From: Thermodesulfobacteriota bacterium
GTDB taxonomy: Bacteria > Desulfobacterota_D > UBA1144 > Nemesobacterales > UBA2774
NCBI GenBank assembly: GCA_963422265.1
Contig: OY729416.1
Span: forward strand, 1,344,001 to 1,408,000
Reading direction: 5' to 3'
DNA length: 64,000 bases
Shown here piece by piece: positions 11,026-58,437 of this stretch (within the stretch, counting starts at the first letter, position 1; each line of letters begins with the position of its first letter). The translations under genes and the position numbers were made by a program. The notes under the pieces were generated by a model. That model was given only the letters and a program-made list of their open reading frames with translations, was not told where the DNA came from and did no database searches.

Positions 11026-11970
11026 TTGGATATATTCGTTAACATCTTATTTTCCCTCACCGGGCTTGCTGCCCTCTTTTTAGGTGGGGAATGGGTGGTC
11101 AGAGGCGCTTCCCGCCTAGCCCGGATCATCGGGGTAAGCCCTATAGTAATAGGGCTTACGGTTGTGGCGTTTGGGACTTCCGCTCCTGAATTCATCGTCT
11201 CTCTTATAGCTGCCCTTAAGGGTTCAAGCGATATAGCTCTCGGAAACATAGTCGGGAGTAATATATCAAATATAGGACTCATACTCGGCATATCAGCTAT
11301 CATAAGCCCCTTTGTAATTAACCTAAGACTAGTAAAGGTTACAGTCTCTTTTATGATTTTATCCTCTCTCGTTCTCTATTTTATAGCTTGGGGGCTTGAA
11401 ATTAACAGGATAGAAGGGGGGGGACTCTTTGGGATGCTTATCATTCTTATAACCTACACTTACCGAATTGCGAAAAAAGAAGCCCTTGATATTGAGCAGA
11501 AAAACGATCAAATACAGGGTCCTGAATATGCCAAGTGGAGGCAAGTGGGCTTGATCGCCCTTGGGCTAGTAGGATTGATTATAGGGGCAGAGCTTTTGGT
11601 TGACTCAGCTATTCTAGTCGCCAAAGCACTCGGCGTGAGCGAGCTTATTATCGGTATTACTGCAATAGCTGTTGGCACGTCCCTGCCTGAACTTGCCACC
11701 TCAATTATAGCAGCCATCAGGAAAGAGACCGATATTATGGTAGGCAACTTAATAGGTAGCAATGTTTTCAACGTGGGGATACTAGGGTTGGTCTCGGTTA
11801 TTAAGCCAATACGGGTAGAGGTATCGTTGCTCAGTTTTGAGCTCATAGCAGTGGTTTTCTTTTCGGTTTTGGTTCTTCCAATTATGGCGACGGGAGCTAG
11901 AGCAAATAGGTTAGAGGGGGTGTTGCTTCTAATATTTTATACTGCGTTTATTTTGAGTTTGTTCAAGTAG
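11026..11970 (+). CDS. Calcium/sodium antiporter (YrbG family)
   Basis: Two alpha repeats, GTSAPE and GTSLPE, with GSN motifs. Confidence 0.9.
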   Translation: MDIFVNILFSLTGLAALFLGGEWVVRGASRLARIIGVSPIVIGLTVVAFGTSAPEFIVSLIAALKGSSDIALGNIVGSNISNIGLILGISAIISPFVINLRLVKVTVSFMILSSLVLYFIAWGLEINRIEGGGLFGMLIILITYTYRIAKKEALDIEQKNDQIQGPEYAKWRQVGLIALGLVGLIIGAELLVDSAILVAKALGVSELIIGITAIAVGTSLPELATSIIAAIRKETDIMVGNLIGSNVFNVGILGLVSVIKPIRVEVSLLSFELIAVVFFSVLVLPIMATGARANRLEGVLLLIFYTAFILSLFK

Positions 11971-11977: not shown

Positions 11978-13702
11978 TTAACGAGTGCGGAATTTAATTC
12001 CCGCTTTGGCTCTATCCCAGGTGTTTTCGCTTATTTCCTTGATTTCAGATACCTTGATCTTTTGCGTAGCGGTTATGGGGAACCCTTGCTTATAGACTTC
12101 TATGAACCTTGGGACCATAAAGACAGGGGATCTATCAGCCATCCACGTTACGAATTCAACCGGGTCAAACGTGGTGTCTCTCTTGAGCGTAATGTTGAGC
12201 TTAATTTCATCATCAGATATATTAGGCAGCCTAACTCCGACTGCTATAGCTTCCTGTACTGCTTTATACTCCATAGCCACGTCTTGCACTGCAATGGGGT
12301 CAACGTTTTCACCAGAGACGCGGATTCTACTATATCTTCCCTGAAAGTAGTATCGCCCTTCTATCCCTTTGGCAAATAGATCGTCAGAGTTAAAAAACCC
12401 ATCGTCATCAAAGGCTTCTCTGGTTCTTCTTTCATCTTTGAAATATTCGTTTAGAGTCGTATGTGGTATTAAAGGCTTTATAAACAAAAGTCCCTTTGCC
12501 TCATCAGGGGGGACAGGGGTTTCAAAAGGGTTCCAGAACGGACGGACTATTTCACTTGTATCCTCCGGGTTTCTAAGTTCTACGTAATAGCCTTCCATGG
12601 GATAGCCAGATGACCCGGGACGATCGTCTTCTGGGTCTTTCCATAGCACCATACCCATCTCGGTAGAACCATAACCGTCTATAACGCGCGTATTAAAGCG
12701 GTCTTGAAATTCCTTGAGGTTTCGGGGCGCGGGACCGGAGAGAACGGTTCTGATTTTATGCTTTTTATCCCACTCACTAGGTTCGGCTGCCCACAAGTAC
12801 TCAGCAACCGCCCCAAGCATTCCAACGTAAGTCGCCCCACATTCATAAGCCCACTTCCAAAAATTTGACGCTGAAAATCTAGGGAAGAAAACAACGCTCG
12901 CCCCAGCGCCTATCGCACTAAAAAGACCCATGACCTGGGCGTTAGCGTGTCCAAGCGTTAGCACGCTCATAAGGACATCTTCACTCCTTATGCCCTGTTG
13001 CTGTATGAAGCCCCTTACGGTAAGCACTACACCTCCATGGTTTCTTGACACGCCCTTTGGCATACCTGTGGTTCCAGAGGTGAACATACATCTCTCGACG
13101 TCCTTAATGGTTACGTCAACTTCAGGATTTTCATCCGAGTAGCTATCAAATACGGAGAATGGCAGCGTTTTTATGCCATTTATATCATTGGGAACATTAT
13201 TGGAATCGCCTGTCATAAATATTACGTCAAGGTTTTGCAGGTCTTTCGCTATTTGCTTGATGAACTCTGAGCTCTCAGGATCAACGATAAGGGCGCTCAT
13301 TTCCGAATAGTTGATTACGTAAGCTAGTCTATCTCCCTTTTCATCCTTATTAATTGGAACCTGAACGGCTCCAGTTTTATGACAGGCGAGGATAGAGACG
13401 ACGTATTCAGGGGAGTTAAGCATATATATTCCGACTTTTTTGCCTTTGTTAACGCCATGATCGTTCTTAAGACCGTTAGCTATTCGGTTTGCCCATTTAT
13501 TAGTTTCTTCATAGGTATAGTTATTATTGAGATTTCCATTCCTGTCCGCAACCTTAAACATTGTCTTATCAGGAAATGCAAGAGCTCCCTTTTCCAGATA
13601 TTTTGTGAGCGGTTGCCACTTAGACAAGTCCTCAAAGGTTCCGAAAGGAAGTTCACCTTCTCCTACGTATTTTGAATCACGCGGTTTTAATAGTAGCTGC
13701 AT
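11978..13702 (-). CDS. AMP-forming acyl-CoA ligase (CaiC-like), paralog 2
   Basis: Same motifs as 9084-10811 and colinear with it over the full length. Confidence 0.85.
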   Translation of the reverse strand: MQLLLKPRDSKYVGEGELPFGTFEDLSKWQPLTKYLEKGALAFPDKTMFKVADRNGNLNNNYTYEETNKWANRIANGLKNDHGVNKGKKVGIYMLNSPEYVVSILACHKTGAVQVPINKDEKGDRLAYVINYSEMSALIVDPESSEFIKQIAKDLQNLDVIFMTGDSNNVPNDINGIKTLPFSVFDSYSDENPEVDVTIKDVERCMFTSGTTGMPKGVSRNHGGVVLTVRGFIQQQGIRSEDVLMSVLTLGHANAQVMGLFSAIGAGASVVFFPRFSASNFWKWAYECGATYVGMLGAVAEYLWAAEPSEWDKKHKIRTVLSGPAPRNLKEFQDRFNTRVIDGYGSTEMGMVLWKDPEDDRPGSSGYPMEGYYVELRNPEDTSEIVRPFWNPFETPVPPDEAKGLLFIKPLIPHTTLNEYFKDERRTREAFDDDGFFNSDDLFAKGIEGRYYFQGRYSRIRVSGENVDPIAVQDVAMEYKAVQEAIAVGVRLPNISDDEIKLNITLKRDTTFDPVEFVTWMADRSPVFMVPRFIEVYKQGFPITATQKIKVSEIKEISENTWDRAKAGIKFRTR

Positions 13703-16485: not shown

Positions 16486-17847
16486 ATGCCAAATATAAAT
16501 CCACAGATTTTCAGGGAATACGATATAAGGGGAATTGTTGGAAGGGATGTTGATGCTGATGTCTTTGAAACTATAGGGAAGGCTTATGGAACACACGTGA
16601 AGGATTATGGGGGCAAGACGGTCTCCATGGGTAGGGATTGCAGGATCAGCTCCGCTGAGCTTGCTAAGGCTATGGCTAGGGGGATTAACTCTATTGGCGT
16701 TGACGTTATAGACATCGGATTAGTTACAACGCCTATGCTTTATTTCTCTCTTTATAATTTGGACGTGGATGGGGGAGTTATGATAACGGCTAGTCATAAT
16801 CCGGGGGAATATAACGGGATAAAAATGAGCGTTGGCAAGGACTCCATTTTCGGCAGTGAGATAAAAAAAATAGGTGATATTGCAAAGAGCGGTAATTTTA
16901 CTTTGGATAATGGGGCGTTAGAGCAAAGAGACATTAGAAAGGATTACATAGACTTCCTGATGAACAACGTGAGTATTAAGCCCGGCATCCGTCTAGCTAC
17001 TGATTACGGTAACGGCATGGTAGGGATTATAGGTCCCGAGGTACTGACAGCACTCGGTTGTGATTTGACCGAGCTTTACGTAGAACCTGATGGGACGTTC
17101 CCTAACCACCATCCTGACCCTACAGTTGAAGAAAACTTGGCTGAGCTTATTAAAACCGTGAAAGATAAACGGCTTGAGCTAGGCATAGGTTTTGACGGCG
17201 ATGGCGATAGGATAGGGGTTGTTGACGAGAACGGAAGCATAGTATGGGGGGATATGCTGGTGCTTATACTTGCAAGGGCAATTATTAAGGAGAGCCCTAA
17301 CACCAAGATAATAGGGGACGTTAAATGTTCTAATAGATTGTTTAACGGCGTGCAGGAAGCTGGAGGAAAGGCTATAATGTGGAGGACGGGACACTCGCTA
17401 ATCAAAAGTAAGATGAAGTCCGAAGGTGCCGCGCTTGCGGGAGAAATGAGCGGGCACGTATTCTTTGCCGATAAGTATTTTGGTTACGACGACGCCCTTT
17501 ACGCTTCATTGCGATTACTTGAGATCATATCAAAAACCGGAAAGAAGGTATCTGAGCTTTTGGACGGAGTTACCACTGCCATTTCTACCCCTGAGATCAG
17601 GGTTGATTGCCCTGAGGACATAAAGTTTCGGGTTGTAGAAGAGGTGACAGAGAAACTAAAGCATTATTATGAAGTTATAGATATAGATGGGGCAAGGGTA
17701 AACTTTCCTGATGGGTGGGGACTTGTAAGAGCTTCTAACACGCAGCCTGCCCTGGTCCTAAGGTTCGAAGCTGAAACTAACGATAGGCTTTCTGAAATCC
17801 GCTCAATAATAGAAGGTGAGCTAAGCGCCGCAATGGGTAGGTTATAA
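16486..17847 (+). CDS. Phosphomannomutase/phosphoglucomutase
   Basis: TASHNP phosphoserine loop, FDGDGDR metal loop, GEMSGH. Confidence 0.95.
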   Translation: MPNINPQIFREYDIRGIVGRDVDADVFETIGKAYGTHVKDYGGKTVSMGRDCRISSAELAKAMARGINSIGVDVIDIGLVTTPMLYFSLYNLDVDGGVMITASHNPGEYNGIKMSVGKDSIFGSEIKKIGDIAKSGNFTLDNGALEQRDIRKDYIDFLMNNVSIKPGIRLATDYGNGMVGIIGPEVLTALGCDLTELYVEPDGTFPNHHPDPTVEENLAELIKTVKDKRLELGIGFDGDGDRIGVVDENGSIVWGDMLVLILARAIIKESPNTKIIGDVKCSNRLFNGVQEAGGKAIMWRTGHSLIKSKMKSEGAALAGEMSGHVFFADKYFGYDDALYASLRLLEIISKTGKKVSELLDGVTTAISTPEIRVDCPEDIKFRVVEEVTEKLKHYYEVIDIDGARVNFPDGWGLVRASNTQPALVLRFEAETNDRLSEIRSIIEGELSAAMGRL

Positions 17848-18109: not shown

Positions 18110-20613
18110 ATGAGTGATAAAGCCAAAGAAAAGCGTTTTCTCAATGCGTTGGAAGCTCTGTTTACAGGGGCGGAAGTAGAGGGAGACTCCGGCTTCATCA
18201 ACCTGATGCGCATGAAGCGCGACTACTTCAAATCTATAAGTCCAAAGCTGATGGAAGCGATTGACGGGCGCGTTGAAAAAGACACCGCTTTTCGCGAGGA
18301 ATTGTTTGATAAACTCTACACATTCTTCTCCCGCTACTTTTGTGAAAGTGGTTCTATTTACTTTCGCCACCTGCCGGCTTTTTCAAAAACATACGAGCGC
18401 GTCTATGCCGATGGCGAGGACGTCGCTTTGTCGTGGAAAACACGGATGCTCTACTACGTCAAGTCCGACGTATTGGTGCGCTCCATGCCAGTTGATTTGA
18501 TTGATGAAAAAAAACCACAGAATACGAGGCGGTTTTACTTTAATGCATCTGAGGTTGAAAACAAGAAAAACAACGAGCGGCGTGAGTTTGTTTTTGAGTT
18601 TGACAAAGTGGAAAACCAGCAGGAAGGGTTGTTCATCTCAAGGTCGCCTATTCCGAAAGAGGCAGGAAAACCAAGACTGAAGACATTATCAAACAGTGCC
18701 GCAAAGTCGGTGTGTCGCTAACCGATGAACAGCTTAATAAAGCCATTAACATATTCCGCCGTCAGACTGAAGCAGATTTTTTTATCAACAAGGATGCACG
18801 TGGCTTTCTGTGTGAACAATTCGACCTGTGGATGTATCAATACATATTTCAGGAAGAAACCATCTTTCAGCAAGAGAGGCTTAGACAACTACAGTCAATT
18901 CAACAAACCGCCTACGACATCATCGACTTTATCTCCCAGTTTGAAGACGAGCTCTGCCGCGTGTGGGAAAAGCCTAAGTTTGTGCGCAACGTCAACTATG
19001 TAGTCACGCTAGACAAATTGACGGGCGGAGTTCTAAACAAGATATCAAAACATCAAGGCGCCAACGCGCAGATAGAAGAATGGCGCGAACTAGGGATGGT
19101 GGACGACCAGTTTTCAATCAAGGAGATATTCAACGGACAAAGGAGCCTTGATGACGCCAATGGCGCAAGCGGTGATTATAAATTTCTGCCACTGGACACC
19201 AAACATTTTAAGGACTTGGAGTTAGAGATCATTGACGCGCTAGGAAATTTAGACGAAGCGTTGGACGGTGAGCTTGTGCATAGCGAAAACTGGCAGGCGT
19301 TGAATACCTTACAGAAACGATACAAAGAGAAGGTGAAATGTATTTATATTGATCCGCCGTTTAATTTGGATAGTAGCGACCAGTTTAACTACCGAACAAA
19401 CTATAAAAATTCCTGTTGGGCAACACTATTGGAAAATAGAATTTCCCTGGGGAAAAACTTTCTTTCTGATGACGGATCAATTTTTGTGCGGTGTGATTAT
19501 AACGGGAATTGGATTGTGAGATTTCTTATGGACAATACATTTAATCATGAATTGATCAACGAAATACAAGTGAATACTACTCAGAAGATATTTGAAGGTG
19601 TCCATGGCTATAACATTGCTACGAATTCGCTTTTTTGGTATGGAAAGTCTTACCATGTTTATATTTCTCCACAGAGAATAGCAAGAGATAACATCTATTG
19701 GTTGCCATGCCATTCCGGTGGCGAACGAAAGCCTCCAGAAAGAAACTTCTTTGGAAAAACACTGTTACCCCCTTCTGGTAGGCATTGGACTTTTATTCAA
19801 GACAAAATTGATTACATGATTAAGGATAATAGGATAAGGATAAATCAGGATAAAGAGTATGAAGATATGCGAGGAAGTTTAATTAAAGGGATGCCAGAAT
19901 ATCAGATTGCAGAACGAAAATTACTTAATTCCAATTGGACAGATATCCCGGGATACACTTCTACAACAAGTTTTCCAACCGAAAACTCAGAGAAATTACT
20001 CAACCGAGTAGTTAAAACTGCTTCTATGAGAGAGAATGTCGTTTGTGACTTCTTTTCTGGTTCCGGCACCACCACCGCAGTCGCGCACAAACTTGGTCGC
20101 AAATGGATCGGAGTGGAAATGGGAGAGCATTTTTACAGCGTGATTTTACCAAGAATGAAAAAAGTTTTGGCTTATGATAAATCTGGAATTTCTAAAGAAG
20201 TAAAAGAATACAAGGGTGGCGGTGCATTCAAATACTACGCGCTAGAGCAATACGAAGAGACACTGAAAAACGCTCACTATCAAGATGGCGAGCAGATTGA
20301 AATAGACAGCATGAAATCACCGTTTGAGCAATACGTCTTCTTCGGCGACGACAAACTCGCCCATGCCGTTAAGCTCCCGAAGAAACCTAGCAAGGACGGT
20401 AAACTGAAGATCAACCTGCGCAGCCTCTACGCGGATATCGACATCGCCGAGTCCCTCTCCAACGTCCTCGGCAAACCTATCCGCAAACGTACTGCCGACA
20501 GAGTAACTTTTGAAGACGGCACTACCAAGAAAACCAACCCCGCAAAGATGACGGCAGCAGAACAACAGGATTTCATCTCTCTCATCAAACCCTATCTGTG
20601 GTGGGGGGAGTGA
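18110..20613 (+). pseudogene. mod: Type III R-M methyltransferase (Mod), frameshifted near 18626-18628
   Basis: ORFs 18110-18721 and 18712-20613 join if one base is added at GGG 18626-28 (..QQEG-VVHLKVAYSERGRKTK..). Motifs YIDPPFN and DFFSGSGTT. Confidence 0.85.
20261..20613 (+). repeat. mod 3' segment, copy A1 (~350 bp)
   Basis: Near-identical, with scattered substitutions, to 22738-23088. Confidence 0.95.
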
Positions 20614-20643
20614 AATAATACGCAAACTAAAGGGGGAAACACC

Positions 20644-22614
20644 ATGAAACTTAAACAATATACCGTTAAAGAATTCCAAAGCGTCTGGGATTCAGGGGCC
20701 ATCAAAATAGAAGACAAGATAACGTGTCTTGTCGGCAAAAATGAAGCCGGGAAAACGGCTTTGCTTAAAGCTCTTTATCGCACTAACCCTGTTACTCAAG
20801 ATGACAATGTCTTTGATATAACTTACGACTACCCGAAACGTGAAGTGGAGGATTACAGTATTGCGGTTGATAGTAACGAACGAGAAAAGGCTGTGGTGGT
20901 GTCGTGCGAATATGAACTTGAAGACAAGGATATGGAGCACATTCATGAGCATCTTGGTTCTGGGACTTTGAAGCAGAAGACCTTTCAGGTAGAAACATAT
21001 TATGGCGATGATAAAAGCAGGTATGTTCTGGATGTGGATGAAGGGAAGGCAAGACAGCATCTTGCGAGTAACCCAAATCTTGTAGAATCGTTAAAGAGTA
21101 AATTGAGAGATGCGAATGATTGGAATAGGTTCGCTGCTGTGCTTAACAAAGAAGTTGAGTCTATAGGTGCCATTTCAGAGATAAAAAATTTAGTTAAAAA
21201 TATCAATGAACAGGGCTTGTCATCCTACATTGCTGAAAAATGGATACAGCCACATATACCGAAATTTCTCTACTTTGATGAATACTATCAAATGCAGGGT
21301 TGCACAAATCTGGATGCGCTTATTGGGCGAGAAAGCCAAAATCAACTTGAAAATTCGGATTGTCCTCTAATCGGTTTAATCAATCTTGCTCGCCTTGATC
21401 TTCATACACTGACGAAGATAAGCAACACCACAGAACTAAAAAATAAACTTGAGAGTGCGAGTAACTATTTGACAAAACAAATAATTAGTTATTGGTCACA
21501 AAACAAGCATATTAGGATGATATTTGACGTGCGCCCTGGAATGTCGAGCGACCCTGAAGGGATGCGGCAAGGTATGAATATCTGGAGCGCAGTCTATGAT
21601 TCTGTTCATCTTGCGAGTACGCCTCTCAGCTCTCGGTCAAAGGGTTTTGTATGGTTCTTCTCCTTTATTGCCTGGTATGAAGATATTAAACGGAAGAAAG
21701 GAAATGTCATCCTCTTGCTGGATGAACCTGGTTTGTCCTTGCATGGCAGGGCGCAGGGCGATTTGCTCAGGTATTTTGAGGAAGGGTTGTCAGAGCATCA
21801 ACTTATCTATTCGACGCATTCTCCTTTTATGATAGACCCGCGAAGGTTCGAACGAATACGGATTGTTCAAGATTCAGGAATTGACACTGATAAACAGCTT
21901 CCGAAGGAAGAAGATGGCACCAAGGTTCTATCCGATGTTTTTGCCGCCACCAGCGACAGTTTGTTTCCTCTTCAAGGCGCTCTTGGCTATGAAATACAAC
22001 AAACTCTGTTTGTAGGCCCAAATGTGCTTATCGTGGAAGGTCCTTCTGACATGCTTTTCCTTTCAGCGATATCCGGTCAGATGGAACGCGAAGGACGCAT
22101 CGGGTTGTCGGAGAAATGGGTTATTACACCTGTTGGTGGTAGTGGGAAGATTCCTACTTTTGTTTCATTGCTGACATCCCAGAGAGGTTTAAATATTGCT
22201 ACTCTTCTGGATGTTCAAAATAAAGACCGTCAACAAATCGAAGTAATGTATCAGAAAAAGATGCTCAAGAAAAAACAAGTACTTACTTACGCAGAATTTC
22301 TAAACCGGAACGAGGCAGATATTGAAGATATTTTTGAACGAAACTTTTATATCAATCTTGTTAATCAAGAATTCAAGAAGGAACTTGCTGATAAGCAGAT
22401 TGAGGTGAAAATGCTTAATGAAAAAGAACCACGCACAGTTCGAGCGATAGAAAAATATCTTGAAAAAAATCCATTTATATCAGGTTCGTTCAGCCACTAT
22501 CGCCCGGCTCGATATTTTATGGAACATGTTGATGATTTGTGGAGAGACTTGCCAACAAAATCAAAAGATTACTTTGAAGATATTTTCAAGAGACTTAATG
22601 AAATGCTGAAATAA
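20644..22614 (+). CDS. OLD-like ATP-dependent nuclease (ABC-type ATPase plus TOPRIM)
   Basis: Walker A GKNEAGKT, Walker B LLLDEPG, STHS switch, TOPRIM-like VEGPSD and later acidic motifs. Confidence 0.78.
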   Translation: MKLKQYTVKEFQSVWDSGAIKIEDKITCLVGKNEAGKTALLKALYRTNPVTQDDNVFDITYDYPKREVEDYSIAVDSNEREKAVVVSCEYELEDKDMEHIHEHLGSGTLKQKTFQVETYYGDDKSRYVLDVDEGKARQHLASNPNLVESLKSKLRDANDWNRFAAVLNKEVESIGAISEIKNLVKNINEQGLSSYIAEKWIQPHIPKFLYFDEYYQMQGCTNLDALIGRESQNQLENSDCPLIGLINLARLDLHTLTKISNTTELKNKLESASNYLTKQIISYWSQNKHIRMIFDVRPGMSSDPEGMRQGMNIWSAVYDSVHLASTPLSSRSKGFVWFFSFIAWYEDIKRKKGNVILLLDEPGLSLHGRAQGDLLRYFEEGLSEHQLIYSTHSPFMIDPRRFERIRIVQDSGIDTDKQLPKEEDGTKVLSDVFAATSDSLFPLQGALGYEIQQTLFVGPNVLIVEGPSDMLFLSAISGQMEREGRIGLSEKWVITPVGGSGKIPTFVSLLTSQRGLNIATLLDVQNKDRQQIEVMYQKKMLKKKQVLTYAEFLNRNEADIEDIFERNFYINLVNQEFKKELADKQIEVKMLNEKEPRTVRAIEKYLEKNPFISGSFSHYRPARYFMEHVDDLWRDLPTKSKDYFEDIFKRLNEMLK

Positions 22615-22750
22615 TGACCCCTGCCCTTGAAACCATATCCCAATCCCTAAACTACGGAGACCTGCCTGAAACATGGCGTGTGCCAGATATTGAACGGTTT
22701 TCACCTGATAAAACGCTTTACGATTATCAGGAAGACTCACTGAGAAACGC
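22614..22750 (+). repeat. res 5' segment, copy B1 (137 bp)
   Basis: Diverged copy of 25107-25243. Confidence 0.95.
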
Positions 22751-23088
22751 TCACTATCAAGATGGCGAGCAGCTTGAAATAGACAGCATGAAATCACCGT
22801 TTGAACAATACGTTTTCTTCGGGGACGACAAGCTCGCCCACGCCGTCAAGCTCTCGAAGAAACCTAGCAAGGACGGTAAACTGAAAATCAACCTGCGCAG
22901 CCTCTACGCGGATATCGACATCGCCGAGTCCCTCTCCAACGTCCTCGGCAAACCTATCCGCAAACGTACTGCCGACAGTGCAACCTTCACCGACGGCACT
23001 ACCAAAAAAATCAACCCCGCAAAGATGACGGCAGCAGAACAACAGGATTTCATCTCTCTCATCAAACCCTATCTGTGGGGGGGGTTGA
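22738..23088 (+). repeat. mod 3' segment, copy A2
   Basis: Diverged copy of 20261-20613. Confidence 0.95.
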
Positions 23089-23156
23089 ACAACAAAGCGT
23101 TGTGTTTGTTTTTCTGTTTTTTTTAGTGTTATACGGTATAATTTTCTTGAAAGAAA

Positions 23157-24560
23157 ATGCCATTCAAGCTAAAAATAGAGAACTTTGGAAAATTATCTGA
23201 TGCAGAAATCCACATTGGGCAATTTACTGTATTTGCTGGACCTAATAACACAGGCAAAAGTTCTGTCTCGAAATTGCTTTATTCACTGTTTGATGGAATG
23301 AACGCTAACCATGCTTTAGTGTATATCAATAATTTGATACACCCATTGCGGAGAGGTTTGGGTAGATCAAGAAGATGGTTATATGACGATGGACATGAGA
23401 AGGAGGGACTGTTTCAAAAGAGGTTTCTACTTTCCTTAAAGGATGAGATAGATAAAATAGAGTACCTCGTCCGGTCATGGTCTATTGATAATTTTGAGCA
23501 AATTGAGAAAGAGTTACCTAAGCTTTGTGATTATATAAAAAGGATACGCGAATTATATGAAGGGTTTAATCAAAAGCAATTACCACAACGGGAATCAAAA
23601 TCTTCCTCTGCTGTTTATTCTGATTTTGAGAGTTTAGGAAATTCATTAAATGAACTATATGAAGAGATTAAAGAAGTAGGTGCCGAGGATGTTGTTAAAA
23701 ATGGCGTAAGACAGAAAATATTTCAAAATATAATTCAGAATTTTCAAGTATCTGACCTTTCATCCCTGGCAACACAACAAGAACATCCGTCTAAAGTTTC
23801 TATTGATGGCATTGGCAATTTTAAGTTTAGGAACAGTGACACTGTTAATTTCGACATTAAAATTCCTGGACTGCAACAACTACAAAATTACTCAAGAGTG
23901 ATATATCTAGAATCGCCTGTTTACTGGAAGTTGAAGTCTGCTCTGGAAGACATTCAGATAAACCCACGTTTTTTCCGTTCTATGGGCAGACATAGACGGA
24001 ACGGAGTCCCTGGATATTTCTATGATTTGGCAAGTGCTCTAAGATCAGAGTATGCCGGTGATATTGCTTTTCCTAATTTGTATCAAAAGTTAACTTCAGA
24101 AGACGTTGTAGGCGGAAAAATCTCGGTCTCTGAAACTGGAGAGGTGAATTTTCAGGAAAATGGACGCAGTTTTTCATTACATCTGACCGCAATGGGAGTG
24201 GTCAACCTTGGCATCATAGCATTGCTTATTGAACGCAAGATTATAGATAAAGGAACCTTTCTTTTCATTGATGAGCCAGAAGCTCATTTGCATCCAGCTT
24301 GGCAGGTGATCATGGCTGAGACTTTGTTTGAATTGGCAAAAGGAGGGGTAAATGTTGTCATTGCCACTCACAGCGCAGATATTCTCAAGTGGTTGGAAGT
24401 GCATTTAAAAAAGAACCCCGATGATGAGCATCTGGTTGCCTTGAATAAATTTCCGGCCAATGGTAAGGAGATAGACAGACAGGATTTCAGCGATAAAATA
24501 GCATCTATCAAGCAAGAATTGACCAAACCTTTTGCTGATCTATACCTGGAAGGGATATGA
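23157..24560 (+). CDS. ABC-type ATPase (AAA_15/AAA_21-like)
   Basis: GPNNTGKS, FIDEPEAHLHP and ATHS motifs. Confidence 0.85.
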   Translation: MPFKLKIENFGKLSDAEIHIGQFTVFAGPNNTGKSSVSKLLYSLFDGMNANHALVYINNLIHPLRRGLGRSRRWLYDDGHEKEGLFQKRFLLSLKDEIDKIEYLVRSWSIDNFEQIEKELPKLCDYIKRIRELYEGFNQKQLPQRESKSSSAVYSDFESLGNSLNELYEEIKEVGAEDVVKNGVRQKIFQNIIQNFQVSDLSSLATQQEHPSKVSIDGIGNFKFRNSDTVNFDIKIPGLQQLQNYSRVIYLESPVYWKLKSALEDIQINPRFFRSMGRHRRNGVPGYFYDLASALRSEYAGDIAFPNLYQKLTSEDVVGGKISVSETGEVNFQENGRSFSLHLTAMGVVNLGIIALLIERKIIDKGTFLFIDEPEAHLHPAWQVIMAETLFELAKGGVNVVIATHSADILKWLEVHLKKNPDDEHLVALNKFPANGKEIDRQDFSDKIASIKQELTKPFADLYLEGI

Positions 24561-25123
24561 CTGCGCTTGCAAAATTCTTGGAGAAGATTGATGTTGCTGG
24601 TAAGACTCTTGGATATCAGGCATATCGTATGGATGGCAACTCACCAAAGCCTGATATGAGGAAATATGTCGGCTTGGGTACTTGTAACTGCTGCGATTAT
24701 TTCATGTTCAGCAAGAAGGAAAACATTACAGTCTTGATTGAAGAAACCAAGCTCAACGAGCAAATCAAGGATTTGAAAGGTGAATACCGTTATTTTGAGG
24801 TTAAGGACCTAACCGAGTTTGTCAGGAAGTACATCCGAAATGAAAACAAACTGAAAGTCTATGGGTCAATGCTCGTATTGTGTCGCTTGGCTACTGCATG
24901 TAAAAATGTGACACGTCTTCTGCAAACGAAAAAATACAAGTTTTGGCTCGTCGTCAGCGATGAGCGTCGTGTTGTCGAGGATGCAAAATGGTTGGATCAC
25001 CTCACAAAGGATCTGAAAGATGATCTGAAAAGTGTCTTATCAAAAAAACTTGTAGATGATGTTAAGATCATACCATCCGGCAAATTTGTTGAAAAGCTAT
25101 CGCAATATGCAACCCTTTCTTGA
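24557..25123 (+). CDS. Hypothetical protein coupled to the ATPase, possible PD-(D/E)xK nuclease
   Basis: ATGA overlap with the ATPase stop; CDY...VLIEETK resembles a D...ExK motif. Confidence 0.6.
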   Translation: MTALAKFLEKIDVAGKTLGYQAYRMDGNSPKPDMRKYVGLGTCNCCDYFMFSKKENITVLIEETKLNEQIKDLKGEYRYFEVKDLTEFVRKYIRNENKLKVYGSMLVLCRLATACKNVTRLLQTKKYKFWLVVSDERRVVEDAKWLDHLTKDLKDDLKSVLSKKLVDDVKIIPSGKFVEKLSQYATLS

Positions 25124-28053
25124 AACCATTGCTCAAACCTTAAACTACGGAGACCTGCCTGAAACGTGGCGTGTGCCAGATATTGACCGGTTTTCACCTG
25201 ACAAAACGCTTTACGATTATCAGAAAGACGCACTGAGAAATGCGGCGCGTGCGCTGTATCTCTACTATGAAAAATCGCACGATTGGCGTTGCACCGAACA
25301 GCAGGATACGATTAACAGGCGCAAGCAGGATTTTGCTAACAGATACGCCACCTCTCAAATTGGCGACTTCACGATAAAAAAATTATGAAAGTAATGCAGA
25401 CAGAAGAAACCAGCGACGAAATCCCGTGTTCCGTATTCTTTCCGAATATATAACCCCATTTGGCGAAGAGATTCTCTATTCACAACTAATCAATCGTATG
25501 TGCTTCTGGATGGCAACGGGAAGCGGAAAAACGCTTGTTATGGTTAAACTGATTGAGTATCTCCACTCTTTGATACAACACAGGGAAATCTCGCCGCATA
25601 ATATTCTTATTCTTGCGCCAAGCGATCACCTAATCAAACAGATACAACGAGCTGTAGATGAGTTCAATCAGGTTGGATTACATATTGATCTTATTCCGCT
25701 ACGTGAAAGACACCACAAGCACCAGGGACGGCTTGGTAACGCGACAACTGTTTATTACCACCGCAGTGATAACATTTCCGATGTTCAGAAAGATGCGCTG
25801 ACCGATTATCGCGGTTATGAAAACGGTGGGAAGTGGTACGTGTTTTTGGACGAAGCGCACAAGGGAGGCAAGGAAGACTCAAAACGGCAGGCTTATTATG
25901 CAGTCATGGCACGCGATGGGTTCTTATTTAATTTTTCGGCGACTTTCACTGACCCCCAGGACATTGTAACAACAGTCAAAAAATACAATTTACAGGAGTT
26001 TGTTAAAAACGGTCACGGCAAAAACATCTACCTGAACGATGTAGAATACAACGCTTTCAAAAACAGGGTAGAAGAAATAAGCCACGATAAAAGACGTAAG
26101 ATCGTTTTGAAATCACTCATAACGCTAGCTTATGTTTGCCTGCGCATTAAAGAACTCCGCAGATATACGGGTTTGGAGGAAAAACTATATCACCTACCCC
26201 TTATGCTGACCCTTGTTAATTCAGTCAATACAAACATTGAAAACGAAAGAAACGACTTATGGGCGTTTTTCCAAACCTTGCGTGAAATTGCGAGTGGAGA
26301 GATTGATGAGGCGATTTTCCAAACGTTAAAAGATGAACTGGTTAATGATTGGAGCAAGGGGAGTATGCTCTTTGGAGAGGACGCCGGGGGAATTATCGGA
26401 ACGGATAAAACCTCTGTTACTGAAATGGAGATTGCCGATCTGCGAAAGAGTGTATTCTTGAGCAGTGAAAAGGGATCGCTGCAACTCATCCGCAGCAATG
26501 ATAATAAAGAGCTTGCATTTCAGATGAAAAATGCAGATGATCCGTTCGCGCTGATACGCATAGGAGATACGTCAAAGTGGCGCAAAGACCTTCTTGTCGG
26601 ATATGAGGAGACGTCAACTCTTAGGGAAGAATCTTTTTTTGATGATTTGGAGCAGAGTAGCATAACGATACTGATGGGTTCGCGATCGTTCTTTGAAAGC
26701 TGGGATTCAAACCGTCCAAATGTGATTAACTTTATAAACATTGGAGGGGCAGATGCAAAGAAATTCGTTGTTCAATCCGTAGGCCGCGGCGTGCGGATTG
26801 AGACGCTTCGCGGCAAGCGCCGCCGTTTAGCTTTTCTGTCGAGCAATGACGCAGATGAAAAAATCCTACAAAGTTGTCACGACCGCGTGCAACCTGCGGA
26901 GACACTGTTCCTGTTTGCTACGAACCGAAATGCGGTGAAATCCGTTCTGGAAGGACTACAAGCAGAAAAAATCGGCGTCTTTGAAAGGATTGAAGGCTTT
27001 GCGAAGTCGGAAAAACCAAAAGTCAACGGCAAAGAGATGCCTCTTCTCATTCCTGAATACAAAGACGTAAAAGGCAATGACGCGAGACGGGCAAAGTTTG
27101 CGATGAGCAATGAAACCCTGAACAGGTTTAAGGGGTGGGTTCAAGGCACTTCTGACTCAGTGTTTGCCGTTCGTGATAACCTTTCAATAGAAGAAATACA
27201 AGGTTTGCGTGACACAACAGAAGGACAGAACGTCCAGATAAAACCAGAGAAGAGTTACGTAAGCCTTTCCTTTCTTCAAAATCGTATTACGTCTCACCTT
27301 GCAAAAATGGGAAAAACGACCGACCAAGTGCGAGAATTGAATGAATATGAGGACATTGTTCACTTCCGTCAGATTCGCATTCATGCTGAGTACGTTAGTA
27401 AACTTCAAGAGAAGGTCTGTCAGGTTAAAAAAGGAAAACTTTCAGACGAAGAACTCACAGAATTGTTTGAGCAGTTTCAGAGAAAAGAGATAACAAGAGA
27501 AGAATATGACAACAGGTCTTCTGGAAAAACGCAGGAGACCTTCAAAGACTTGACCATCAAAAAATTACTTGGTCATTATTACCTGCCTGTCATATTAGGA
27601 GACGAAAAGGCACATTACATAAAGCACATAATCAAGGTCAAAAGCGAAATTGACTTTTTAACTGCTCTTGAAGAGTGGGTGGGGAAGAATGAAGTTAACT
27701 GTGATGGCTGGATGTTCAGCAAGATAGACGAGGGGTTGGATAACGTTCATATTCCCTACTATGACTCGAGTAAAAATGAATATCGCCGTTTCCTGCCTGA
27801 TTTTGTTTTTTGGACATGTAGAGATGATGAATACCGCATTGTTTTTGTTGACCCCAAAGGAGTAGAGCATGCATCCTCTTATCGTAAGATTGACGGCTAT
27901 AGACAACTTTTCATCAAAGACAACGCGTTCAGGATCTTCAATTATGGCAAGCACAAGGTTTCAGTAGCCCTTTTGTTTTATAATCCCCAAAGCAATCCTT
28001 TAGATTATTATACGAATTTCTGGATTGAAAGCCCATCTCAAATATTTGTATAA
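25107..28053 (+). pseudogene. res: Type III R-M restriction subunit (Res), frameshifted at the A7 run 25376-25382
   Basis: N-terminal piece 25107-25388 continues in another frame (YESNADRRNQRRNPVFRIL). Motifs MATGSGKT, DEAH and C-terminal PDF...DPKG nuclease. Confidence 0.85.
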
Positions 28054-28264: not shown

Positions 28265-29413
28265 CTATTCGCGTTTAACCCCACTTAGCTCTTGAAGTAA
28301 GGATTCGAGAGTTTCCAACTTGATCTCATACTGTTCAGATATTCTGTTGAGTTCAGCTTGGCGTAAATCAAATCTTGGATAAGTGTTGTTGTTGACAGAG
28401 AATTCAGGCTCGAGCGCATCGGTTTTTAGCGCAAGTTGCGCCACGTCCCACCTCGAATAATGTCCTAGAGAATCAAAAACGGCTTTCACCGCTTTTATCT
28501 GATTAGCGTAGCATTCCGCATACAAGATCGCGTCCTTCTCAAAATTAGGCTCTGCCAAATATCGCCCGGCGGGGTTTACTATTGAGCTCCCCCCAAGAGC
28601 CCAGTCGTAGTTTATGTGATCGCCGTCGCGTATATAATGCCACTTCTCCGGAAAATCCTCAGAAGACAGGTATCCACAACCACTTAGGACGAACGCCCCT
28701 GCCTCAAACGCATGGACTTTTATTAACGATTGCAAGTTGCATAAGGCTCCACCTGGGCTCGTATCGGCTTCAAGCAATTTTTCCGACCCCCTCTTCCAGT
28801 TGCCTGGCCATACTGCTATATGAAACTCTTCGCCCCTGTGAATCATCGCCGATCTGACTAGCGGCATGTGGTTTTCCCAACATATAAGTCCCCCTATGCG
28901 CCCTATTTCCGTATCAAAAACTTTTATATCGCTGCCATCTCCCATGCCCCAATATATCCTTTCGGTATAGGTAGGCATCAGCTTTCTATGCTTTCCCATA
29001 ACCTGCCCTTGATTATCTATAAATAGAAGCGCGTTATAGACCGTTTGGCTTCCATATCTGTCATCTAGCTCGTTGAATCCTATTACCACGTAACAGTTTG
29101 CCTCTTTTGCGGCATTTCCAAGCAAGTCGGTGTCTTCACTGGGAACAACTATGGAGTTATCCTGAAGTGCAATCATAAAGTCCGTCCACTCATGCGGAGG
29201 GGTTTCGTATCCAACAGTGTAATACGCTGGATAGCCGGGTATGAAGGCTTCTGAAAAGCTTACTAGCTCGGCGCCGTTCTTTCCTGCATCCCTGATCAGA
29301 CCACATGCTTTCTGCACTGTCTTTTCCCTATCCATGAAGACGGGAGAGGCTTGAACAACGGCTACCTTAACCTTTTCCTTACCCCCTAGAATTTTGCTGT
29401 TCATTGAGTTCAT
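28265..29413 (-). CDS. Nitrilase (carbon-nitrogen hydrolase)
   Basis: Catalytic triad contexts SEAF, HRKLMPT and ICWEN. Confidence 0.9.
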   Translation of the reverse strand: MNSMNSKILGGKEKVKVAVVQASPVFMDREKTVQKACGLIRDAGKNGAELVSFSEAFIPGYPAYYTVGYETPPHEWTDFMIALQDNSIVVPSEDTDLLGNAAKEANCYVVIGFNELDDRYGSQTVYNALLFIDNQGQVMGKHRKLMPTYTERIYWGMGDGSDIKVFDTEIGRIGGLICWENHMPLVRSAMIHRGEEFHIAVWPGNWKRGSEKLLEADTSPGGALCNLQSLIKVHAFEAGAFVLSGCGYLSSEDFPEKWHYIRDGDHINYDWALGGSSIVNPAGRYLAEPNFEKDAILYAECYANQIKAVKAVFDSLGHYSRWDVAQLALKTDALEPEFSVNNNTYPRFDLRQAELNRISEQYEIKLETLESLLQELSGVKRE

Positions 29414-51953: not shown

Positions 51954-53315
51954 ATGAACATGTTAGAAGAGATTATATATCAAAAATCAATGGGAAATCC
52001 ATTCATTGACGCTGGTGTGAGTGTAATGAGTCAATGGTTGGATATAAAGCCGCATGAAATTACTTCTGATGATTTAAGAAGGGTTGTAAAAGGAATTGTC
52101 CCTGTGTTTAACAATACGAGTTTTAAGAAAAGTTTATATTCTATATTTCCCAACAGTACTTTTACTAATAACTCTATAAGAGGTGATAGAAAAGCGAAAT
52201 TCATTTGTGATTGCAATAAATATATTGATGCCATTATAGTAATGCAGGACTCGGGCGATTGCCTTGGGTGTGGTAGGCGTAACTCAACCTACAAATTAGG
52301 AAAAGATAAAGTTCCTTTAACAGGAAGTGGAAAACTTGCAAATTTCTTTCCGAGTTTTGACAAGGGTGTGGGATATTGCTCAGCTTGTACTCTTGCAATC
52401 CAGTTTTCACCCTTATCATTTGTTGCCAGCGGTGGAAAATTGTTAATGCTTAGTTCTACTTCATGGCAAGCAATGGTTTCATGGACAAAAATATGCGTTA
52501 AAGACATACGAAGCAAGATGTTAAAAGGTGAAGACGTAACTTGTTATAACCCTGGATACTCTAATCCACGTAATGGCTTATTTTACATGGCAGGTGAAAT
52601 GATTAAGCTCGAGGAAGGCGGGGTAACAAATGAAGATGTGTCTATGCAGGTGTTTTATTTTACAAACTACAATCAAGGTCCGGAATTAGAAATTTTTTAT
52701 CTTCCTACACCGGCATTTAGATTTCTCCGCTATGCTAACCAAATTCAATATAAATCTGCGTGGATTAGCATTGTCAAAAGTGGCTATCAGAAAGTAAACT
52801 GGAACAAAGTAAAATTAGAAGATGATTACAAAAATAAGTATAACCTTGTTTATGAATATCTTTTACAAGAAAGGTCAATTATACAGTTCTTTCTAAATCA
52901 GAAGGAAAGAAAACAAAGAGGTGATTGGGAATTACTCTCTCTTTACTTAAAGGAGGTTAGAAATATGAGTGAAGAAAGGATTGAAGTGATTAGAAAAGTA
53001 GCTGATAAAATCGCAGATATTATAGAGAAATCTAGAAGTGATAAAAGACTAGGTCAGTTGGAAAGAGCAGGAAGCTACAGGGAGTTCCAAAACATACTTA
53101 GGTTTATTATAAAAGACAGATTAAAAAATGATGAAGATGAATGTCTTTTTACGTTGGATGAATATACAAAACATTTATTTCCTGATGGTTCACGCACATG
53201 GAAAGAGACGCAGTATTTATTATTGTTCGGAATTTACGAGACTCTTCATGAATGGCTTAAAGATAAGGGAATAATAGAAGATGAAAATACAAACCAATCA
53301 ACGGAGGAAAACTAG
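51954..53315 (+). CDS. cas8b1: Type I-B large subunit Cas8b1/Cst1
   Basis: GNPFIDAG, CxxC...CxxC zinc motifs, FTNYNQGP, position before cas7. Confidence 0.85.
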   Translation: MNMLEEIIYQKSMGNPFIDAGVSVMSQWLDIKPHEITSDDLRRVVKGIVPVFNNTSFKKSLYSIFPNSTFTNNSIRGDRKAKFICDCNKYIDAIIVMQDSGDCLGCGRRNSTYKLGKDKVPLTGSGKLANFFPSFDKGVGYCSACTLAIQFSPLSFVASGGKLLMLSSTSWQAMVSWTKICVKDIRSKMLKGEDVTCYNPGYSNPRNGLFYMAGEMIKLEEGGVTNEDVSMQVFYFTNYNQGPELEIFYLPTPAFRFLRYANQIQYKSAWISIVKSGYQKVNWNKVKLEDDYKNKYNLVYEYLLQERSIIQFFLNQKERKQRGDWELLSLYLKEVRNMSEERIEVIRKVADKIADIIEKSRSDKRLGQLERAGSYREFQNILRFIIKDRLKNDEDECLFTLDEYTKHLFPDGSRTWKETQYLLLFGIYETLHEWLKDKGIIEDENTNQSTEEN

Positions 53316-53317
53316 TT

Positions 53318-54343
53318 ATGTCTAAACATATTATTGGACTTGTACTTATAGACGCACCGTTTTCGGCTCTTAATAACGCAGGGACAGAAGCCTCTCAATC
53401 AACTGAAAACATAGTTGCTGTAAAAACATTAAGAAAGGGGCGGAATGTGTATCCCTATGTATCAGGACAGGCTTGGAGAAATTGGTGGAGGATTACTCTT
53501 GAGAAAGAACTTGTATGGAATCTTTCTCCCATTACACGGGGAACGAAAACAGCTTTTACTGCTGCAGATCCGGTGGAATATCCTGATGACGATCTTTTTG
53601 GTTATATGCGTGCGCAGTCAGAAGAGGTTCACCAAGAAGGCAAGAAGCCTAAAAAACAAAACATTACAGTTACTCGTTTATCTCCTCTCAAATGTTCTCC
53701 TCTTATCTCAATTGAGTCTCAACAGCCAACTAACGACTTTGGAGTTATGGCACGACAAGAGGACAATCCTGTTCCTTATGAACATCAATTTTATTCAACT
53801 GTCTTAAAAGGAATTTTTTCACTTGATTTAAGCGCCGTCGGCACATTTTGGAACGTTAATAAAACGGGTTACAAAAATGTCTCTGAACAATATGCCGAAA
53901 AGATCAGAGAAAACGGTGGAATACAGTCTGATGATAAAACTCATTGGATTCTGCCAAAAGATATACGGCTAAAAAGAAGCAAAGACGTAATTAAGGCTTT
54001 GTCTGTAATAAGCGGTGGGGCGAATTTAACCTCTCATCTAACGGATGTTACACCTAAGTTAATAATTCTTGGAGTAAATGAGGGTGGAAATCATCCATTT
54101 ATGCATCTGGTGGTAGAGAAACAAGGGAAAGGTGAATTTAGCATTCCAGCATTTAAGCAGGTTTTAGAAGATTATAAGGATAGGCTGGATTCTATCTACG
54201 TAGGGAGGAGAGAAGGTTTTATGGATGAGCTAGATGACTCTCTAACTAATCTCGCCAAATATAATGAACGAGTGATCTACAGTTCGCCTAATAATGTTAT
54301 TAGTGAACTGACCGAAAGCCTTGGACAATACTTAGATGGGTAG
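53318..54343 (+). CDS. cas7: Cas7/Cst2/DevR backbone subunit
   Basis: YPYVSGQAWR, DDDLFGYMRA, TRLSPLK. Confidence 0.92.
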   Translation: MSKHIIGLVLIDAPFSALNNAGTEASQSTENIVAVKTLRKGRNVYPYVSGQAWRNWWRITLEKELVWNLSPITRGTKTAFTAADPVEYPDDDLFGYMRAQSEEVHQEGKKPKKQNITVTRLSPLKCSPLISIESQQPTNDFGVMARQEDNPVPYEHQFYSTVLKGIFSLDLSAVGTFWNVNKTGYKNVSEQYAEKIRENGGIQSDDKTHWILPKDIRLKRSKDVIKALSVISGGANLTSHLTDVTPKLIILGVNEGGNHPFMHLVVEKQGKGEFSIPAFKQVLEDYKDRLDSIYVGRREGFMDELDDSLTNLAKYNERVIYSSPNNVISELTESLGQYLDG

Positions 54344-54362
54344 GTAAGAAGGCAAGTAACCA

Positions 54363-57231: not shown

Positions 57232-57732
57232 GTGAATGAGGTAGCAATTACTGGAAATATAGTCCAATACTATTTCATTTGTAAGAGGAAAATATGGCTT
57301 AGTTCAAGACAAATATCGCCTGACCAAGATAATGCCCACTTAGAATTAGGCAGATTCATAAGCGAAACCACGTATAAAAGAAATAAAAAAGAGATTAGAT
57401 TAGAAAACATTATCGTTGACCTTTCAAAACTTGATAGTGAAAAGGTGGTTGTCGGAGAAGTAAAAAAAAGCTCCAAAGCTTCGGAAGCAGCTAGGATGCA
57501 GCTTGCGTTTTATCTTTACACCCTAAGAGAATATGGGATAGATGCTGAAGGCGAGCTTCTTTTTCCAAAGGAGAAGAAAAAGGAAAAGGTGCTTTTAGAT
57601 GAAGGGCTTACACAGAAACTTGAAAATGCAATTGAGGAGATAAAAACCATCGCAGCAGGAGATGTGCCACCGCCTGCGGTTAAAATCAGATATTGCACGA
57701 ACTGCGCCTACAGGGAGTTTTGCTGGAGCTAG
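57232..57732 (+). CDS. cas4: Cas4
   Basis: CKRKIW, D...EVKK, CxxCAYREFC. Confidence 0.95.
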   Translation: MNEVAITGNIVQYYFICKRKIWLSSRQISPDQDNAHLELGRFISETTYKRNKKEIRLENIIVDLSKLDSEKVVVGEVKKSSKASEAARMQLAFYLYTLREYGIDAEGELLFPKEKKKEKVLLDEGLTQKLENAIEEIKTIAAGDVPPPAVKIRYCTNCAYREFCWS

Positions 57733-57769
57733 TTTGGACTTTAGTGGAATAATCGTTCAACAACTTTAT

Positions 57770-58400: not shown

Positions 58401-58437
58401 AAAAATCATTGATAATTATACTAAGAATAGCTAGCAG

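Follow-up and report, generated by a model that had tools for sequence, protein, structure and literature searches.

Defence genes have been described as embedded within Hma, BREX, DISARM and type I restriction-modification (R-M) systems (Payne et al. 2024, doi 10.1101/2024.01.29.577857), and such embedding is also cited in PMC12988326. The present analysis concerns a 64,000-nt stretch of the genome of a Thermodesulfobacteriota bacterium (contig OY729416.1, positions 1,344,001 to 1,408,000; hereafter the window), in which a type III R-M operon holds two cassettes of defence-like genes, cargo 1 and cargo 2, between its methyltransferase gene mod and its restriction gene res. As in the main text of Payne et al. 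(2024, doi 10.1101/2024.01.29.577857), extra defence genes are nested between operon genes, on the same strand, within a system based on DNA modification. The cargo pool largely overlaps with that study's as well, the proteins in the mod-res slots of this family matching PDC-S23, PDC-S13, PDC-S06, PDC-S45, PDC-M23A/B, HEC-02A and HEC-06. Unlike the hosts treated there, the host here is a type III R-M system, with the cargo placed precisely between the end of mod at its stop codon and the start of res. The main text of that study mentions 'type III' solely for a DRT system, does not use the word 'recombination' and does not describe scars of array growth.

The anticodon nuclease PrrC lies inside the type Ic R-M locus EcoprrI (PMC12707154) and offers a second parallel, an ABC-type ATPase effector within an R-M operon; AAA_13 proteins (PDC-S06) were likewise found in the slots of two related loci (L119 and L133). 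In the account given in that source, EcoprrI is a type I operon with a single embedded gene and an experimentally shown guard function, whereas the R-M system analysed here is broken. Homology-facilitated illegitimate recombination (HFIR) has been proposed for effector-immunity arrays of type VI secretion systems (T6SS), for the displacement of Rhs C-termini and for orphan contact-dependent inhibition (CDI) modules (Kirchberger et al. 2017, PMC5361080). The present locus resembles the arrays described there in that a conserved gene anchors one end of the exchange, the other end is illegitimate, older modules are kept and stubs remain at the boundaries. Those arrays, as presented there, hold toxin and immunity genes and the old effector is displaced, whereas here stubs come from both mod and res, no displacement takes place and an anti-phage role is predicted for the cargo.

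No description of cargo in the mod-res gap of a type III system, or of scars copied from the flanking genes, was found in the main texts of open-access papers and bioRxiv preprints. The first-pass annotation of this DNA had considered the arrangement undescribed, which holds for the type III gap and its scars, but not for embedding or stub-leaving arrays, both already in print in the texts cited above. It had also called the array integron-like. An integron consists of co-oriented, promoterless and stackable cassettes behind one promoter, together with IntI and attI/attC sites. The likeness extends to the co-oriented, promoterless, stackable cassette array; unlike in an integron, no IntI was found in the scanned open reading frames (ORFs), no attI or attC repeats were present, and the junction positions vary, with no fixed crossover. 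Type III R-M systems are further subject to phase variation and decay (phasevarions), in which mod and res are switched or lost through small changes in repeat length. Similar small changes were seen here in an AGGA unit of mod and in an A7/A6 run of res, the latter mixed within one sequencing run (X3).

The slot and its cargo pool thus extend the known embedding; new are the preserved joins, the before and after states at strain level, and the stacking without a recombinase. We consider it likely that the mod-res gap of type III systems is a slot for promoterless, co-oriented anti-phage cassettes, and that two of them were stacked here by the fusion of two alleles via HFIR.

Repeat anatomy and cargo of the operon

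The genome is one closed contig of 1,783,595 bases. The operon lies on the plus strand, as do all its features given below, and its neighbours are a phosphoglucomutase gene (16486-17847) on one side and, on the other, a minus-strand gene for a carbon-nitrogen hydrolase (28265-29413). The span of mod is ~18110-20613 and that of res 25107-28053, with seven reading frames placed head to tail between and within both. The layout is mod-A1-cargo1-B1/A2-cargo2-B2-res, where A is the 3' end of mod (~354 nt) and B the first ~125-137 nt of res. The two copies of repeat A (20254-20553 and 22731-23030) are 93% identical over 300 nt at a spacing of 2477 nt, and BLAST extends the match to 354 nt at 94%. Those of repeat B (22626-22750 and 25119-25243) are 91% identical over 125 nt at a spacing of 2493 nt, and at the protein level repeat B begins with the res ATG (22614 and 25107). 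A search of the whole genome revealed exactly two copies each of A and B.

A1 (20254..20613) ends in the mod stop codon, whereas A2 (22731..23087), a mod scar matching residues 754-867 of the Mod protein of the closest related locus, L006, at 22731-23084, has none. B1 (22614..22750) is a copy of the first 137 nt of res and forms a res 5' scar, matched by residues 11-59 of L006 Res at 22605-22751 (tblastn); its counterpart, B2, is the first 137 nt of the N-terminal piece of res (25107..25388). B1 and A2 meet in the hybrid junction CACTGAGAAACGC (22738..22750), and a contig of run X3 passes over 20572-22803 without a difference. Up to the G of CACTGAG the junction follows res, and beginning with the C of AAACGC it follows mod; this places the crossover in the 3-nt AAA, within a patch in which mod and res share 11 of 13 positions. 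Between genes of this size, tens of such 11/13 pairs are expected by chance (an estimate); the patch is therefore a site used by recombination and not a designed site. No inverted repeats were found at the unit boundaries, and no attC-like inverted repeat nearby. A1 and A2 differ in 10 synonymous and 9 non-synonymous codons, three of the latter in junction codons, and these differences fit two alleles that diverged as working genes.

The B1/A2 join is in frame and gives a chimeric ORF (22614..23126) of 170 aa, composed of Res residues 1 to ~46 and the C-terminal ~120 residues of Mod. Its only PADLOC match was to the C-terminus of MTase_III (9e-9), and no family could be assigned in Pfam or NCBIfam; the ORF is probably a by-product of the join. 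The in-frame scar may be chance (one in three), and an aid to ribosomes running on to cargo 2 would be speculation. The cargo 1 stop and the ATG of B1 overlap as TAATG at 22612-22616, while the last ORF of cargo 2 ends at 25123, 17 nt inside res (ATG 25107). The repeat layout, the chimera at the junction and the overlap of each cargo stop with a res start had all been proposed in the first-pass annotation and were borne out in every point checked. Its remark on units of almost equal length is correct as to the lengths (2477 and 2493), but a meaning beyond coincidence found no support.

Cargo 1 (20644..22614) encodes a 656-aa probable OLD-family protein with an ABC ATPase and a putative TOPRIM nuclease domain (Pfam AAA_15 1.4e-21; PADLOC Old 2.5e-21 and AriA 1.4e-23). 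The AAA_15 match lies over the curated Pfam cut-off, whereas OLD-like_TOPRIM (6.8e-4, 20.6 bits) stays under its cut-off of 23.2; residues 347-482 match the OLD nuclease structure PDB 6p74 at 2.1e-7. Homologues with 61-62% identity were present in two genomes of the same order (G057 and G060), one adjoining a small methyltransferase near a TraG gene and the other sitting among unrelated genes. Both lie outside any type III operon, so that elsewhere cargo 1 exists as a gene in its own right.

Cargo 2 consists of two genes. Cargo 2a (23157..24560, 467 aa) is an ABC ATPase (AAA_15/AAA_21; Pfam AAA_15 2e-24; PADLOC HEC-02A 1.5e-29, PD-T4-4_A 8.9e-25 and PDC-M47A 9.7e-22), homologues of which (49-53%) stand directly upstream of res in the distant relatives L063, L064 and L066. 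Its overlapping partner, cargo 2b (24557..25123, 188 aa), belongs to no known family; nothing above cut-off was found in Pfam or NCBIfam and nothing reliable in PADLOC, where PDC-M47B gave a weak match (6e-4). It is kept beside the ATPase in L063 and L066 at 42-45%, L064 being cut by the contig end. A look-up in the Atlas by language model placed a NERD-domain protein as the nearest named cluster (0.85), a weak match to be taken as a lead only. An AlphaFold2 model of cargo 2b built from 3 sequences had a pLDDT (predicted local distance difference test score) of 58.6, too poor for a fold search, and was not used. The two cassettes had been described as unrelated; they do differ in gene number, and the ABC-ATPase fold is the only feature common to both.

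The cassettes are probably independent anti-phage systems. By analogy with PrrC in EcoprrI (PMC12707154; see also the discussion by Payne et al. 2024), a guard role against anti-restriction proteins is possible. The co-orientation and the overlapping stops and starts across the operon genes suggest one transcript from the mod promoter.

The mod-res slot and its scars in related loci

Related loci were collected by searching with Mod or with its C-terminal 232 residues, 80 from genomes and 80 from metagenomes. They cover many bacterial phyla and some archaea, most at 40-60% identity, and include duplicate records (L067=L144, L070=L156, L120=L122 and L147=L154, with L017 close to L091 and L137 to L139). 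The slot could be scored in the 128 loci with both a mod end and a res start, mod and res being called adjacent when the gap was below 150 nt. Among the 66 loci from genomes, 24 had a gap below 150 nt and 42 a gap of 451-7359 nt, with none in between; among the 62 from metagenomes these numbers were 15 and 46, with a single gap of 247 nt. In total, 88 gaps were of 451-7359 nt, 39 were below 150 nt and one was of 247 nt. Nearly all cargo ORFs of the 88 occupied gaps lie on the mod/res strand (165/166; longest-first ORF call on both strands), and overlaps of cargo starts and stops with the stop of mod and the start of res are frequent.

Scanning of the slot ORFs in Pfam and PADLOC showed that the cargo families are known or candidate defence systems, while many slot ORFs had no match. 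Schlafen/AlbA_2-HATPase_c_4 proteins were the commonest cargo. Further cargo comprised Peptidase_M78+DUF4411 pairs, Fic/RhuM (PDC-S23), Bro-N (PDC-S13), DUF3800 and DUF6119 proteins, MNT+HEPN pairs, AbiU2, DarT-Macro, SIR2+HerA, ThsB-like TIR and GmrSD (HEC-06), as well as PDC-M23A/B, PD-T7-4, Ppl-like and other ABC ATPases and AAA_13 (PDC-S06), which we take to be the family of PrrC itself. One slot (L044:859-3910) holds a complete type II R-M system, with a methyltransferase and an MjaI-type endonuclease, together with a Fic protein. No Pfam or PADLOC match was obtained, for example, for cargo 2b or for modules in L039, L055, L056, L114, L138 and L159. The same is true of L021, whose near-identical copy L117 was scanned in Pfam only. 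Such unmatched ORFs can be regarded directly as candidate novel anti-phage genes. In L008 (11935-14856), an insertion sequence (IS) with a DDE_Tnp_1 transposase is flanked upstream by an ABC ATPase fragment (N-terminal, 97 aa) and downstream by a Schlafen-like gene; this cassette appears to have been broken by the IS insertion.

Scars were searched by comparing each occupied gap with the gene ends of its own locus (E ≤ 1e-6). The last 400 nt of mod were found again on the same strand in 8/88 loci and on the opposite strand in 0/88, and the first 300 nt of res in 4/85 and 0/85, respectively. The control segments gave 1/88 on the same strand (a 25-nt repeat) and 0/88 on the opposite strand for mod -800 to -400, and 0/78 on either strand for res 300-600. 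Counting L162 once, scars occur in 11 loci (10 without the duplicate L122), and by tally they fall in 11/26 slots of at least 2.2 kb and in 0/62 shorter slots. All are in direct orientation and at module boundaries. The mod scars measure 30, 43, 48, 60, 66, 69, 110, 165, 304 and 354 nt, and the res scars 42, 78, 88 and 125 nt (up to 137 nt at the present locus). Lengths and end points of the scars vary from locus to locus; the joins are therefore illegitimate and lack a fixed crossover site. The first-pass annotation had asked whether the same junction recurs with different cargo. It does not: the copied part measures 30-360 nt for mod and 42-137 nt for res; what recurs at module boundaries of other loci are scars copied from the locus's own flanks.

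Individual loci illustrate how modules are separated by these scars. L028 carries an MNT/HEPN module, 48 nt of scar, a Schlafen module, 43 nt of scar and an M78/DUF4411 pair, and L120 carries GmrSD, 30 nt, an ATPase+Schlafen module, 110 nt and M78/DUF4411. In L052, a SIR2/HerA module is followed by a 165-nt scar at 96% and a TIR module, and in L056 a two-gene module is followed by 88 nt of res and an ATPase module. L162 mirrors the design seen in the window, with a TIR module, a res scar of ~78 nt, a mod scar of 66 nt (78 nt by tblastx) and a Schlafen module, while L063 has a 304-nt mod scar ahead of an ATPase pair homologous to cargo 2. The one-module form of L056 could also be recognized: L073 carries module 1 alone between flanks 87% identical to those of L056, which makes the two a before/after pair. 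Similarly, L121 carries the second module of L015 alone.

Repeats near res were also noted in two loci. In L134 the repeat flanking the Fic cassette (11848-11946 and 12928-13026) begins ~20 nt before the res ATG and includes the Mod-tail-like motif TTGGTGG; by its letters, the sequence directly upstream of res there looks like an old mod end. In L133 a copy of the last 21 nt of mod stands immediately ahead of res. The tail of mod may also function as a ribosome-binding site for the gene that follows.

Flank identity was calculated over 900 nt, namely the last 450 nt of mod and the first 450 nt of res. Flanks that are 85-94% identical often go with unrelated cargo or none. L103 and L134 (94.3%) have only the Fic module in common, and L095 and L146 (91.7%) have nothing in common. 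An empty slot faces an occupied one in L094 (empty) against L141 (91.6%), in L013 and L099 (empty) against L135 (86.9%) and in L027 against L127 (empty; 86.7%), and the pairs L044/L137 (89%) and L119/L143 (87.7%) belong to the same series. Above 96%, all 8 pairs with cargo in both loci share it and 3 further pairs are cargo-free in both; in some cases the two loci of such a pair probably come from one organism. By contrast, some cassettes are much more similar than their flanks. Cargo is 99.9% identical between L093 and L112, against 80% in the last 300 nt of mod and 96% in the first 300 nt of res; it is 97.4% identical between L011 and L093 (flanks 78% and 86%) and 83% between L077 and L110 (flanks 60% and 71%). 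The proposal of an exchangeable cargo slot between mod and res is upheld by the occupancy of 88/128 loci, by flanks 85-94% identical with unrelated or no cargo, and by an allele without cargo 1 in run X1, described below; cargo varies both among relatives and among strains.

Origin of the two-cassette array

Public run data were used as coded runs (X1, X2, X3 and X7) in the form of assembled contigs with depths, not raw reads. Run X1, which bears the same organism label, is ~2% divergent from the window, alike across mod, cargo 2 and res. In one of its contigs the mod stop (20613) is followed, after three letters, by 23085, and 20770-22517 has no cover; X1 is a one-cassette allele, mod-cargo2-res, without cargo 1. 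Its mod end retains the stop codon that A2 lacks, hence X1 does not derive from the window form by a simple A1xA2 deletion, and we take it to represent the older state. Another X1 joint, from 20613 to 25113 at a depth of 51.8, may represent an empty or different allele. In X7, the contig at the res start (depth 19.3) is unlike the window upstream of 25119 and the cargo bins have depths of 3-9, which only hints at a mixture whose main strain has other cargo. An X7 joint from 20534 to 23012, at which 67 letters fit both sides, is a possible graph artefact and likewise only a hint.

The favoured sequence of events starts from two allelic versions of the operon, ~6-9% apart in their flanks, one with the OLD nuclease and one with the two-gene ABC-ATPase system. 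Incoming DNA of the second allele, with the other cassette, would have recombined with the resident operon. One crossover would have been ordinary and homologous, in mod or in res, while the other would have been illegitimate, joining res nt ~137 to mod ~354 nt before its stop at a chance 13-nt microhomology. The cassette would thereby have been added instead of replaced, giving a two-cassette array with a res/mod scar and neither cassette lost. The conserved C-terminus of Mod and N-terminus of Res would serve as homology handles, with no dedicated recombinase, and ordinary double crossovers in both handles would give plain replacements much more commonly. Two features of the locus agree with HFIR: one join lies at a microhomology (AAA in the 11/13 patch), and homology of 91-94% is available in mod and res. 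The anatomy, the junction, the difference between strains and the generality of the slot and its scars are observations; the order of events and the uptake of DNA, like co-transcription from the mod promoter and an anti-phage function of the cargo, are inferred.

Several observations weigh against this reading. The product does not reveal the route, since a single crossover with a circle or a deletion between tandem operons would leave the same structure. A near-identical donor allele with cargo 1 alone was not found in the genome and metagenome contigs, where the best relatives reach ~60-78% protein identity, and donor and recipient are thus not assignable. X3 contigs end inside A1 and A2 (20276/20572 and 22803/23049), as expected for a 94% repeat, so the tandem order rests on the closed assembly; moreover, X3, which contains 98% of the window's words, may be the source of that assembly. 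Consensus scans for promoters and terminators showed no excess over shuffles and were uninformative, the single operon being read from gene packing only. Finally, among 64 informative like-cargo pairs of related loci, the cargo was more similar than both proximal flanks in 26 (by at least 10 points in 6), less similar than both in 16 and mixed in 22. By these comparisons, independent movement of cassettes appears clear only in a minority of pairs.

As a first alternative, the unit [A-cargo-B] may have been excised as a circle at the mod/res microhomology and reintegrated by one homologous crossover in A or B, the route suggested in the first-pass annotation. Its product would equal the observed structure, and A (354 nt) and B (125-137 nt), at 91-94%, are long enough for a homologous crossover. 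The route requires two rare steps and a non-replicating 2.5-kb circle reaching another cell or a second allele. No deleted or excised joint was seen in X3, although contigs drop rare variants, and junction reads could not reveal an A1xA2 or B1xB2 circle because its junction is the same as that of the chromosome. Other loci, moreover, often have only a 30-110-nt mod tail and no res part, where a fixed circle junction predicts otherwise. We regard this route as unlikely, and the one-step join of an incoming allele is preferred over it because it needs fewer assumptions.

A second alternative is that two operons, or a tandem duplication, stood head to tail and that a deletion at the microhomology then took out most of res1 and mod2, or that the cargo of one duplicated unit was later replaced by a double crossover. 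Deletions at microhomologies are common. In L036 (4330-14738), two complete operons of the family lie head to tail ~430 nt apart, each with mod directly followed by res; these systems are, however, 36% and 47% identical to the query and not allelic. The route also needs the prior integration of a whole second operon, and X1, at a divergence of only 2%, carries a single cassette and ends mod at a normal stop. It appears slightly more doubtful than the circle; both were rated lower than the fusion of two alleles because of the extra steps they need.

An artefact, in which the assembler merged two strain haplotypes or in which one unit is chromosomal and the other a separate 2.5-kb circle, was considered as well, and the breaks of the short-read X3 contigs in repeat A, which leave the order unfixed by those contigs, would allow it. 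The genome is nevertheless one closed contig. The X3 contig over 20572-22803 includes cargo 1, B1, the junction and 53 nt of A2 beyond it, and another covers 23049-25253. The X3 depth is 20.7 for cargo 1 and 20.7 for cargo 2, compared to 20.1-22.8 for mod, res and neighbours, whereas after a merger of haplotypes the cargo would stand at half that depth. Pieces of both cargoes, at least 99% identical, occur as well in the low-depth run X2 of 2013, and the same architecture arises independently in L162 and L063. The equal depths and the spanned junction speak against the merger, and the artefact explanation is largely refuted and very improbable. Least credible of all is a dedicated, integron-like site-specific system relying on a recombinase that escaped notice and on a site within the tail of mod, which the co-oriented, tightly packed cassettes and the superficially recurring boundary element formed by the last 30-110 nt of mod ahead of many cassettes might suggest, but which is disfavoured by scar lengths and end points that vary by locus, by the lack of boundary inverted repeats, and by the lack of a recombinase domain, as had been claimed, in the scanned ORFs within ~10 kb (9-37 kb; outside the locus only ORFs of at least 110 aa) and in the surveyed slots except for the one IS transposase in L008.

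Beyond the fusion of two alleles at this locus, a broader claim can be put forward tentatively, with slightly less than even confidence: that this cosmopolitan type III R-M family, from Patescibacteria to archaea, is a recombinase-free platform which swaps shared defence cassettes via Mod C-terminal and Res N-terminal handles, and also stacks them, each event leaving a dated scar. The cassette pool of such a platform would include OLD, PrrC-like AAA_13, SIR2-HerA, DarTG, GmrSD, TIR, Schlafen-like ATPases, M78/DUF4411, MNT-HEPN and Fic. If this is true, defence islands can be built from inside an operon, the scars form a readable assembly history, and the slot ORFs without annotation make up a rich source of candidate defence genes. 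The assembly of defence islands is mostly inferred from gene co-location, while here the joins themselves are preserved. Copies of gene ends mark the stacking events, and the sister strain with one cassette and the pairs from other phyla show before and after states, which makes the mechanism testable. 'Guilt by embedding' is extended to type III R-M.

State of mod and res and the surrounding window

The main piece of mod (18712..20613) is an N6_N4_Mtase of the type III Mod kind (Pfam PF01555, E 1.9e-33; PADLOC MTase_III, E 3.9e-195), and its top PDB sequence matches are the type III Mod subunits 6k0w and 4zcf, both weak. An N-terminal piece of the type III methyltransferase lies in frame 2 (18110..18721; PADLOC MTase_III PDLC03638, E 3.7e-53), where residues 23-195 of L006 Mod match at 18110-18628 with 79% (tblastn). 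The frame changes from 2 to 1 at 18613..18628, where one AGGA unit is missing after 18620. The main piece of res (25426..28053) is a predicted ResIII/DEAD helicase-type restriction subunit (Pfam ResIII 7.6e-16; PADLOC REase_III 5.5e-21), 66% identical to L006 Res over residues 103-993 and with no PDB sequence match. Res falls out of frame at an A7 run (25376..25382), with the change from frame 3 to 1 at 25361-78. The N6/N4 DNA methyltransferase and the order mod then res are those of a type III system, but the genes are not intact, both being frameshifted in this strain. Other long genes in the window appear whole, and the frameshifts are thus not general sequencing noise.

The mod frameshift is the loss of one unit from a two-unit AGGA tandem (18621-18624). 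X1 holds both units, with AGGA present behind 18620 (depth 40.9/40.9) and mod in one frame, whereas X3 and X7 have the window sequence. At 25383, one base fewer, which places res in one frame, was found in X1 at a depth of 48.3/48.3, in X7 at 19.3/19.3 and in X3 at 6.4/19.3. The A7/A6 run is thus variable inside one sample, and the mixture in X3 may reflect phase variation of res or sub-strains. As judged from the reading frames, the R-M system would be off in this strain through the 4-nt mod deletion and the A7 run in res. Any benefit must then come from the cassettes, which are probably the working part of the operon in this strain. If R-M often decays while cassettes persist, as here, the operon may serve mainly as a carrier.

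In one X1 contig, 447 nt of the central part of mod (19522-19970) are missing or replaced, in a region with a 14-16-nt tandem repeat at 19821-19853; this is probably another target-recognition segment that differs between strains. In L005, L028, L032, L048 and L052, 340-600 additional nt interrupt the match to Mod behind query residue ~105-185 and may be an inserted segment or a variable domain. This mod was found in only 1/60 genomes of relatives (G033, the same place as L006, at 64%), and two further genomes gave matches of 32-34%. Near the locus no tRNA gene was detected, and an Rfam scan of the window gave no family. The GC content of the island is 0.36-0.45 compared to 0.39-0.48 in the neighbours, no clear difference. 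At the far end of the window (60100-64000), a long CRISPR array with a ~30-nt repeat, CTT(C/T)TTTGACTACCTATAAGGGATTGAAAC, and a period of ~66-67 nt runs to the window end, with ORFs upstream at 51954-59439.

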